A stretch of 64,000 nucleotides of DNA from an uncultured Gemmatimonadales bacterium (GTDB taxonomy: Bacteria > Gemmatimonadota > Gemmatimonadetes > Gemmatimonadales > Gemmatimonadaceae): positions 256,001 to 320,000 of the forward strand of contig CAWBZV010000012.1 of assembly GCA_963793305.1 (NCBI GenBank). Reading direction: 5' to 3'. The first letter of the stretch is position 1. Every line of letters starts with the position of its first letter. The notes under the pieces were generated by a model, which saw only the letters and a list, made by a program, of their open reading frames with translations, did no database searches and was not told the origin of the DNA. The translations under genes and the position numbers were made by a program. Below are positions 16,133 through 16,684 of this stretch, one piece after another.

Positions 16133-16684
16133 ATGGATTTTCGCGGAGTAGGAGCACTCCTGGCCGCGGCCTGCATGCTCGCGCCAAGTGCGAGAGCCCA
16201 GGGTCCCGCGGTCGGCGACGCGGCACCCGATTTCTCGCTGCCGGGCGGCACGCGATACGGCGTGCTCAAAGGCCCCGTACACCTCGCCGACTATCGCGGG
16301 CAGACGGTCGTGTTAGCCTTCTTCTATCAGGCGCGGACCAAAGGCTGAACGGTCCAAATGGAGGCGTACCGTGATCAGTACGCCAAGCTGTTCCACAATG
16401 GCCGCAAAGTGACGGTCATTGGCATCAGCGTCGACCCAGACACGATGCAAGCAAATTGGGCGCACGAATCGGACTTTCCGATCGTCTTCGCCAGTGATAG
16501 TGGCAGCGTCGTCGGCAAGATGTACGGCGCCTACGATGCCCAGAACAAAGTCGACAATCGATCGCTGTTCGTCGTCGGTCCCGACGGGCGGATCGCCTAC
16601 GTGACGAAGCCGTTCAAGGTGCTGGCACCGGCATCATATACCGATCTGGCGGCGGCGATCGACAAGGTCACGCCGGCGAGTTAG
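16133..16684 (+). CDS. Exported peroxiredoxin (AhpC/TSA, Bcp-like), predicted selenoprotein with Sec at codon 72 (TGA 16346-16348)
   Basis: ORFs 16133 and 16358 are in one frame separated by a single TGA at the peroxidatic Cys position (VVLAFFYQARTKG-U-TVQM); VGDAAPDFSL, IGISVD, NRSLFVVGPDG; downstream hairpin. Confidence 0.88.
16363..16384 (+). promoter_or_regulatory. Bacterial SECIS-like hairpin
   Basis: GGCGTAC-CGTGATCA-GTACGCC: 7-bp perfect stem, apical loop begins 21 nt after the UGA, with G-U at loop positions 2-3. Confidence 0.75.

Follow-up and report, generated by a model that had tools for sequence, protein, structure and literature searches.

The locus at positions 16133-16684 (plus strand) of the window, as we call the whole 64,000-nucleotide stretch of DNA from an uncultured Gemmatimonadales bacterium that was analysed, raises the question whether two adjacent short open reading frames are separate or broken genes or the two halves of one selenoprotein gene, and which enzyme such a gene would encode. 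A sequence-only reading of the DNA had proposed one frame cut by a single TGA at the position of a peroxidatic cysteine, and this description held. From the ATG at 16133 to the TAG ending at 16684 a single frame of 183 codons plus TAG is present, and its sole interruption is the TGA at 16346-16348 (codon 72, context FFYQARTKG-TGA-TVQM). When aligned to solved peroxiredoxins, the column of this codon pairs with the peroxidatic Cys of 2ywn, AhpE 1xvw and 2cx3, and the UGA would accordingly be read as selenocysteine (Sec; U72) at the peroxidatic position. From the reading of the frame, the Pfam match and a structural model, the coding sequence is that of a predicted 183-aa one-Sec peroxiredoxin of the PrxQ/BCP type with one UGA read through. 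Standard calling splits the gene, as had been expected: translation table 11 yields ORFs of 71 and 108 aa, and the 108-aa half is deposited alone in public collections as a separate protein (a cluster of 18). A purine-rich stretch 3 nt before the ATG (16122-16129, plus strand) resembles a Shine-Dalgarno sequence and may serve as one. A scan of 15800-18100 for promoters and terminators returned no sigma-70-like site and one terminator-like site, the latter at chance level.

The TGA codon was compared with public sequencing runs at the level of contigs. A near-identical contig of run X1, which may be close to the source sample, spans the gene stretch, and its 12 differences all fall outside the TGA codon. 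An RNA-library contig of run X16 covers the codon and has no A>T change, and every A>C and A>G change lies elsewhere, so that the codon is not TGC, TGT or TGG. Neither run's contig thus points to a Cys or Trp codon, and the TGA does not stem from faulty assembly. Two soil studies provided RNA-library contigs that extend over about 16103-16803; as contigs, they show neither transcription nor strand.

All four components of the selenocysteine machinery are encoded in the genome: SelA (E 3e-136), SelB (score above the cut-off), a tRNA-Sec (selC) with the anticodon UCA, and SelD, the gene of which is located beside that for tRNA-Sec and carries an in-frame TGA of its own. A homolog search returned 184 matches in 179 loci, with TGA at the Sec column in 160, TGC in 20 and TGT in 4 (24 with Cys, including 7 paralogs). 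After the 7 paralog rows had been dropped and duplicates removed, 171 distinct loci were left, and the alternation of TGA and Cys that would be expected at a Sec column was found among them, with 154 TGA and 17 Cys loci. Where record titles were given, the closest loci belonged to Gemmatimonadota in 80 of 80 cases; in part, these 80 were found through peptide patterns, and the overlap of one such pattern with the hairpin described below biases them towards conserved Sec forms. Loci obtained by genome search gave the same picture of TGA and hairpin as those obtained by peptide pattern. In a sample of the phylum, a homolog was present in 253 of 301 genomes; among the matches listed, 137 of 150 had one TGA, and there were 132 further matches, while five small families of the sample (26 genomes) gave no match with this query. 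As the gene is deposited in pieces, selenium use by Gemmatimonadota, a common soil phylum, is under-counted.

The TGA form was closely linked to selA. Among 41 genomes (the source genome and 40 relatives), 36 had a homolog at E 1e-20 or better, namely 28 with the TGA form, six with a close Cys form only and two with a distant paralog only. selA was present in 28/28 TGA-form genomes (27/27 without the unpublished genome G012) and in none of the six with a close Cys form only. In a second, hand-chosen set, selA was found in five of five genomes with the TGA form and two of six with Cys only, a tally that leaves out G047, G096, G116, G131 and G182, in which the codon at the Sec column was not seen. 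Pooled, the sets gave selA in 33/33 TGA-form genomes as opposed to 2/12 with only the Cys form; the genomes compared are kin rather than independent, and the link is given without a p-value.

Bacterial Sec insertion uses a UGA and a hairpin just 3' of it. Folding and conservation identified such a bacterial SECIS hairpin at 16363-16384 (plus strand), with the sequence GGCGUAC / CGUGAUCA / GUACGCC, and all its claimed properties were recovered: a perfect 7-bp stem, an 8-nt loop (16370-16377) with G-U at loop positions 2-3, and 21 nt between UGA and loop. The accessible part of a 2026 review gives the bSECIS constraints as a loop of 3-9 nt, a stem of 4-16 bp, a G in loop positions 1-2, a spacing of 16-37 nt and an MFE <= -7.5 (PMC13188914). 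With a loop of 8 nt, a stem of 7 bp, a G at loop position 2, a spacing of 21 nt and -10.3 kcal/mol, the hairpin lies within the four published constraints (PMC13188914). Folding of the 75-nt region gave z = -2.73, and 2 of 200 shuffles were equally good. A loose scan of the genome for TGA, redox motif and hairpin returned 1831 matches and was uninformative; as a genome of 65% GC gives so many, the hairpin by itself is weak evidence, and the weight of the SECIS evidence rests on conservation.

This conservation was pronounced, and the core is kept only in the TGA forms: a 6-bp hairpin core was intact in 154/154 TGA loci and in 0/17 Cys loci, with mean hairpin energies of -11.1 and -4.2 kcal/mol, respectively. 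Within the hairpin, synonymous positions are fixed on codons which these genes seldom use elsewhere. The Arg codon within it is CGT in 149/154 loci, against a background of 143 among 1536 Arg codons elsewhere in these genes, and GCG (154/154) and the Asp codon GAT (149/154) are likewise fixed. Just before the stem, CAA is kept in 137/154 loci (background 40/419) and is possibly part of the recoding signal. Covariation was seen at the outer stem pair, which in 82 distinct rows was GC in 37, CG in 22, UA in 8, AU in 1, UG in 1 and unpaired in 13; none of 500 shuffles reached its covariation score and slid controls scored far lower, and this covariation is limited to one pair, the other pairs varying never or hardly and also coding for protein. 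Two Cys forms, L165 and L028, retain 17 of 20 hairpin bases, as would be expected of recent Sec-to-Cys reversions. As a separate observation, an A-rich AAAUG stands at +8 to +12 after the UGA and before the stem both in the peroxiredoxin gene (16355-16360) and in selD (L013). Judged from these comparisons of sequences, Sec insertion at UGA72 appears nearly certain.

The encoded protein matches Pfam AhpC-TSA (E 3.6e-27) over residues 27-156, spanning the TGA. An AlphaFold model, built from 42 sequences with Cys in place of Sec and a mostly Cys/Pro alignment, had a mean pLDDT of 90.9, with the first 20 residues disordered at low pLDDT and a short beta-hairpin inserted before the active-site strand. 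The top Foldseek matches, among many peroxiredoxins, were Bcp4 3hjp (E 8e-14) and AhpE 1xxu, with TM 0.70-0.73 by query and 26-32% identity for the top fold matches, and by the model the fold is that of a peroxiredoxin of the PrxQ/BCP type. The putative catalytic Thr of TxxU, Thr69 (16337-16339, plus strand), is Thr in 149 and Ser in 5 of the Sec loci, so that Thr or Ser occupies the position three residues before the peroxidatic residue in 154/154. The catalytic Arg region (NRSLF) was intact, as had been claimed: Arg143 (16559-16561, plus strand) aligns with the Arg of solved peroxiredoxins and is invariant in 42/42 aligned proteins, the alignment on which this statement is based, a regular-expression search for the Arg having failed on 41/154 loci. 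The accessible text of PMC5302317 names as marks of PrxQ a Gly that directly precedes the peroxidatic residue and the motif G(V/I)SxD. Both were found, as Gly71 and its counterparts in 154/154 Sec loci and as the segment GISVD here (16421-16435, plus strand; S99 and D101 invariant in 42/42). No model of NCBIfam reaches its cut-off with this protein, and the PrxU equivalog NF040737 gives 64.8 bits against a cut-off of 270.

A signal peptide and a mature chain free of Cys had also been proposed, and both were supported, export being predicted from features of the N-terminus. The only Cys of the whole protein, C14, is located within the predicted Sec/SPI signal peptide of residues 1-22 (16133-16198, plus strand), which was recognised by conservation and heuristic and has a basic start, a hydrophobic core and A-R-A followed by Q. 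At the predicted cleavage site, all 42 aligned proteins have Q23, and A22 is conserved in at least 90% of them; our own heuristic found a signal-like N-terminus in 136/151 Sec loci, most of the misses being signal-like by eye. Export by a cleaved signal peptide is, on these features, very probable. A reading of C14 as lipoprotein cysteine was rejected; the lipobox rule requires L/V/I at -3, which is missing here, and C14 is not conserved. Cys is absent from the core of 153/154 Sec proteins, and thus the resolving Cys is missing.

In one respect the sequence-only reading has to be corrected. It had assigned a PxxxTxxC motif, and the position of the signature Pro in Pxxx(T/S)xxC is, by alignment, occupied by Tyr65 (16325-16327, plus strand), TxxU itself being present. 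Across the 154 Sec loci this position is Tyr in 79, Phe in 61, Pro in 7, Ile in 4, Val in 2 and Ala in 1; Pro is thus absent from 147 of them, whereas it is present in 17/17 Cys loci. It was also found in all 86 database Cys proteins, out of the best 120 of 1538 matches, in which the Cys motif could be read, and in 41 of 43 close-family Cys proteins (among 150 cluster representatives), the remaining two, with Ser and Phe, both being short fragments. At position -2, Lys or Arg occurs in 144/154 Sec loci as compared to 2/17 Cys loci and 13/86 database Cys proteins. According to the accessible texts, Poole and Nelson term the Pro of PxxxTxxC 'absolutely conserved' (PMC4749874), a 2026 review gives a 'highly conserved PxxxTxxU' for Sec forms (PMC13188914), and the canonical motif was present in 99.3% of 38,739 sequences, a set found with active-site profiles, which makes this figure partly circular (PMC5302317). 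As a Pro regarded in this way is missing, peroxidase activity cannot be assumed; from the sequence it is considered likely.

The relation of Pro to the peroxidatic residue was followed on a 62-row tree, for which rows were hand-picked from 128 and the columns for Pro, for Sec/Cys and for residues coded by the hairpin were masked; being unrooted, the tree leaves the events unordered. Its starred branches force at least four Sec/Cys changes, bootstrap trees need 12-13, and a single Cys clade was rejected (AU test, p-AU 0.0003). The Cys+Pro rows L165 and P0092 are nested in Sec+aromatic clades on starred branches, and a starred branch also joins P0003 to a Sec+Tyr row as its sister. With a single clade rejected, the Cys forms have arisen repeatedly, and therefore Pro tracks Cys. 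An independent-pairs test of Sec versus Pro on a 128-row quick tree found only two pairs on starred branches (median p 0.5), a number at which significance is unreachable; the association of Pro with Cys rests on the AU test and the nested clades. The combination of Sec and Pro is viable (7 loci) and that of Cys with an aromatic residue nearly unseen, which suggests that Pro may be needed with Cys and dispensable with Sec, with the caveat that recombination with a Cys paralog over a short tract could import Pro and Cys together. Two arrangements of copies were seen besides: in L161, L162, L163 and L166, all of one genus, Sec and Cys copies lie in tandem and all four Sec copies keep Pro, and in L173 two Sec copies are separated by about 4.7 kb.

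The genes next to the peroxiredoxin gene offer candidates for its electron supply. Tail-to-tail with it lies, on the minus strand (16681-17172), a gene for a TlpA/ResA-like thioredoxin (WATWCPNC; profile matches) with a signal-peptide-like N-terminus, a candidate reductant, followed at 17163-17912 (minus strand) by a gene for CcdA (DsbD membrane domain with two PC motifs; Pfam DsbD_TM E 6.3e-50), a candidate trans-membrane electron conduit. tlpA adjoins the peroxiredoxin gene in 94 of the 148 Sec loci for which 700 nt or more of downstream sequence was available, in six families, and ccdA-tlpA is the only neighbour common to all six families sampled, with 40-60% protein identity in distant ones; the genes upstream of the peroxiredoxin change between families. 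That the pair occurs beside Sec loci and never beside Cys loci (0/17) was considered as evidence of coupling and rejected as confounded; the contrast was left unused because a single family accounts for 15 of the 17 Cys loci and many of its Sec loci, too, are without the pair. A precedent exists in Caulobacter, where, according to the accessible part of the study, ScsB passes electrons via TlpA to the periplasmic PrxQ-type PprX (PMC3322552). Based on gene order and, by analogy, on this precedent, we lean slightly towards TlpA and CcdA as the reductant path of the peroxiredoxin.

We consider it likely that the gene encodes an exported Sec peroxidase, a judgement that concerns the enzyme and not its partner. 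SelB would bind the hairpin and deliver Sec-tRNA at UGA72, as in the established bacterial mechanism, all parts of which are present, and the signal peptide would be cleaved and the protein exported. Following the chemistry of the family, Sec72, together with Thr69 and Arg143, would attack H2O2 or organic peroxides in the cell envelope, the attack of the selenolate on the peroxide yielding a selenenic acid. As the resolving Cys is missing, another thiol has to resolve the selenenic acid; exported TlpA would be the most likely partner and may act via a mixed selenyl-sulfide, and CcdA would re-reduce TlpA across the membrane with electrons from cytoplasmic thioredoxin. As a tentative proposal, which could nearly as easily hold as fail, Sec may free the active site from Pro, so that Sec goes with an aromatic and a basic -2 residue, Cys needs Pro and crossings occur repeatedly via Sec+Pro, within a periplasmic CcdA/TlpA selenium pathway of peroxide defence in this major soil phylum.

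The first account to be weighed against this enzyme holds that the locus is a pseudogene, a sequencing error or a pair of separately made halves, or that UGA stands for Trp or Cys. An ATG 9 nt after the TGA and the separate listing of the halves in databases would agree with it, as would six full-length database proteins with Trp (4) or Leu (2) at the Sec column (P0002, P0016, P0032, P0036, P0071 and P0072). These records are probably most simply table-4 translations or single-base errors; the P0002 cluster also contains four 83-aa fragments. The same TGA, however, occurs in the 154 distinct loci of six families, with an open frame to either side of it, and the tight selA link and the conserved hairpin speak against a pseudogene, an error or UGA as Trp alike. 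In addition, TGA still serves as terminal stop in 32/154 Sec-form genes, so that general codon reassignment is ruled out, conserved Trp is encoded by TGG, and no tRNA-Trp with the anticodon UCA is among the 62 tRNAs of the genome. Taken together, we regard this account as very improbable.

Two further accounts accept a Sec protein and differ on what it does or on what reduces it. An exported selenoprotein that is real and no longer mainly a peroxide scavenger, its site remodelled by loss of Pro and the basic -2 residue, might act as a redox relay or, e.g., as a reductase for sulfenylated envelope proteins or polysulfides. The frequencies of both substitutions in Sec loci point in this direction, as do the lack of an NCBIfam model at cut-off and the four genomes with Sec and Cys copies in tandem, which hint at non-identical roles; a peroxiredoxin-like envelope protein with no peroxidase activity, PrxL, is described in the accessible text of PMC3322552. 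Yet Thr/Ser, Gly, Arg and the G(V/I)SxD motif have all been retained, Sec forms are interspersed with canonical Cys-Pro forms on the tree, the two substituting for one another where selA is lacking, and the four tandem Sec copies all have Pro; we regard such a role as unlikely. It is quite possible, though somewhat doubtful, that the protein is a Sec peroxiredoxin served by another reductant, a small thiol or another thioredoxin, and that the ccdA-tlpA pair is inherited gene order serving cytochrome c maturation, a view that agrees with our preferred explanation except on the partner. The pair is on the opposite strand, convergent to the peroxiredoxin gene, and absent from 54/148 Sec loci, tlpA was also found in 5/5 Cys-only genomes tested, and the genome holds a second tlpA-like gene as well as four cytochrome c assembly genes, which the pair could serve. 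None of these four is located on this contig, however, and the retention of the pair as sole common neighbour at the identities given above favours the TlpA/CcdA path.

Further Sec candidates were noticed in the genome. A second split selenoprotein candidate is a 449-aa thioredoxin-like protein with NHL repeats (G000:C3:250691-252037, minus strand; L200:1192-2538); it contains WTYG-U-INC (UxxC), and a hairpin of 6-7 bp with the loop AGUU is conserved. TGA was present in 8/8 genomes holding it, of 41 searched, one being the unpublished G012. Its architecture presumably resembles that of NHLRC2. The term 'NHL' has no occurrence in the accessible text of the 2026 review (PMC13188914). Two formate dehydrogenase-type genes, one for an alpha subunit over the cut-off (RI-U-HS; G000:C5:1224539-1227577, plus strand) and one for a second protein of the superfamily (NRT-U-HAP; G000:C3 near 1273777, minus strand), have TGA and hairpins with the loops GGUCU/CGGUCUG. 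The genome thus holds at least five candidate selenoproteins, namely SelD, the peroxiredoxin, the thioredoxin-NHL protein and the two of formate dehydrogenase type. A coding-potential scan gave 95 candidates, ranked the peroxiredoxin gene 10th and missed selD; hence no complete selenoproteome is given. Among full-length homologs of about 190 aa, P0206, P0212, P0222, P0234, P0238, P0245, P0250, P0265, P0269, P0280 and P0299 lack Cys in the peroxidatic column, where Ser, Asn, Thr, Ala, Asp, Pro or Gly stands instead, and may, judged by sequence, form a catalytically dead sister group. Elsewhere in the window, the gene upstream (15178-16151, plus strand) has a weak GHL15 match (E 1.3e-4, below cut-off) and looks broken, with a frame change near 15810 and about 300 nt missing compared with a genome of the same genus, and an M28 peptidase (10902-12546, plus strand) is split over two frames (10902-12329 and 11854-12546), probably by a frameshift or assembly error. 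A PIN-domain gene and a small ribbon-helix-helix-like partner at 10043-10760 (minus strand) are presumably a toxin-antitoxin pair, and 18660-25146 (plus strand) holds what we take to be a SusC/SusD-like pair followed by a multicopper-oxidase-like gene.

Sec peroxiredoxins as a class are already known, as is Sec insertion of the kind proposed here. In the accessible parts of the sources, they (TxxU) are an experimentally verified family (PMC13188914, Table 1), with 43 genes in Sargasso Sea data (PMC1088965) and 91 in 78 organisms (PMC5029168). The main texts of PMC13188914, PMC5029168 and PMC12013277 hold no occurrence of Gemmatimonad*, and the accessible text of PMC3322552 none of selenocysteine or Gemmati*. 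A search of mostly open papers, chiefly by their listings, found neither a Sec peroxiredoxin that is exported, Pro-less or from Gemmatimonadota nor a natural substitution of the peroxiredoxin Pro in print; the supplementary tables of PMC5029168 and PMC12013277 may list such genes. Pro is treated as invariant, and a family that keeps it with Cys and mostly replaces it with Sec provides ready-made sequence pairs, which can test why Sec is used and what Pro does. If our proposal on Pro is true, these amount to an experiment of nature with four states (Sec/Cys by Pro/Tyr) that addresses the benefit of selenium to an enzyme. The findings also point to peroxide removal in the envelope by a selenoenzyme lacking a resolving Cys.

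With the bacterial Sec peroxiredoxin family (PF00578/COG1225; prototype PrxU of Eubacterium acidaminophilum, NF040737), the protein shares the Sec of TxxU, the PF00578 domain and the downstream hairpin. It differs from PrxU in its score far below the 270 bits of NF040737, its signal peptide and its Cys-free mature chain, and from the PxxxTxxU of the family, as given in the accessible text of PMC13188914, in having Tyr for Pro. PrxQ/BCP proteins (Bcp4 3hjp, 2ywn, 2cx3) and the 1-Cys AhpE (1xxu) are its top sequence and fold matches. Compared with PrxQ/BCP, it has Sec for Cys, Tyr/Phe for Pro, a signal peptide and the beta-hairpin insertion; its YQARTKGU departs from the PrxQ motif P(K/A/R)(D/A)xTxGC, which the Cys orthologs (PKARTSGC) mostly fit (PMC5302317, accessible text), and from PxAF(T/S)xxC of AhpE. 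In PprX of Caulobacter crescentus, as far as the accessible text of PMC3322552 describes it, the likeness extends to the proposed setting: both proteins are exported, ours by prediction, both are of BCP/PrxQ type, and TlpA with a membrane protein of the DsbD superfamily is the likely source of electrons. PprX, however, has two redox cysteines and a canonical PXXXTXXC and is fed by ScsB (PMC3322552), whereas the protein described here, which we liken to it with no claim of orthology, has a single Sec, lacks both the resolving Cys and the Pro, and is encoded close to a minimal CcdA.
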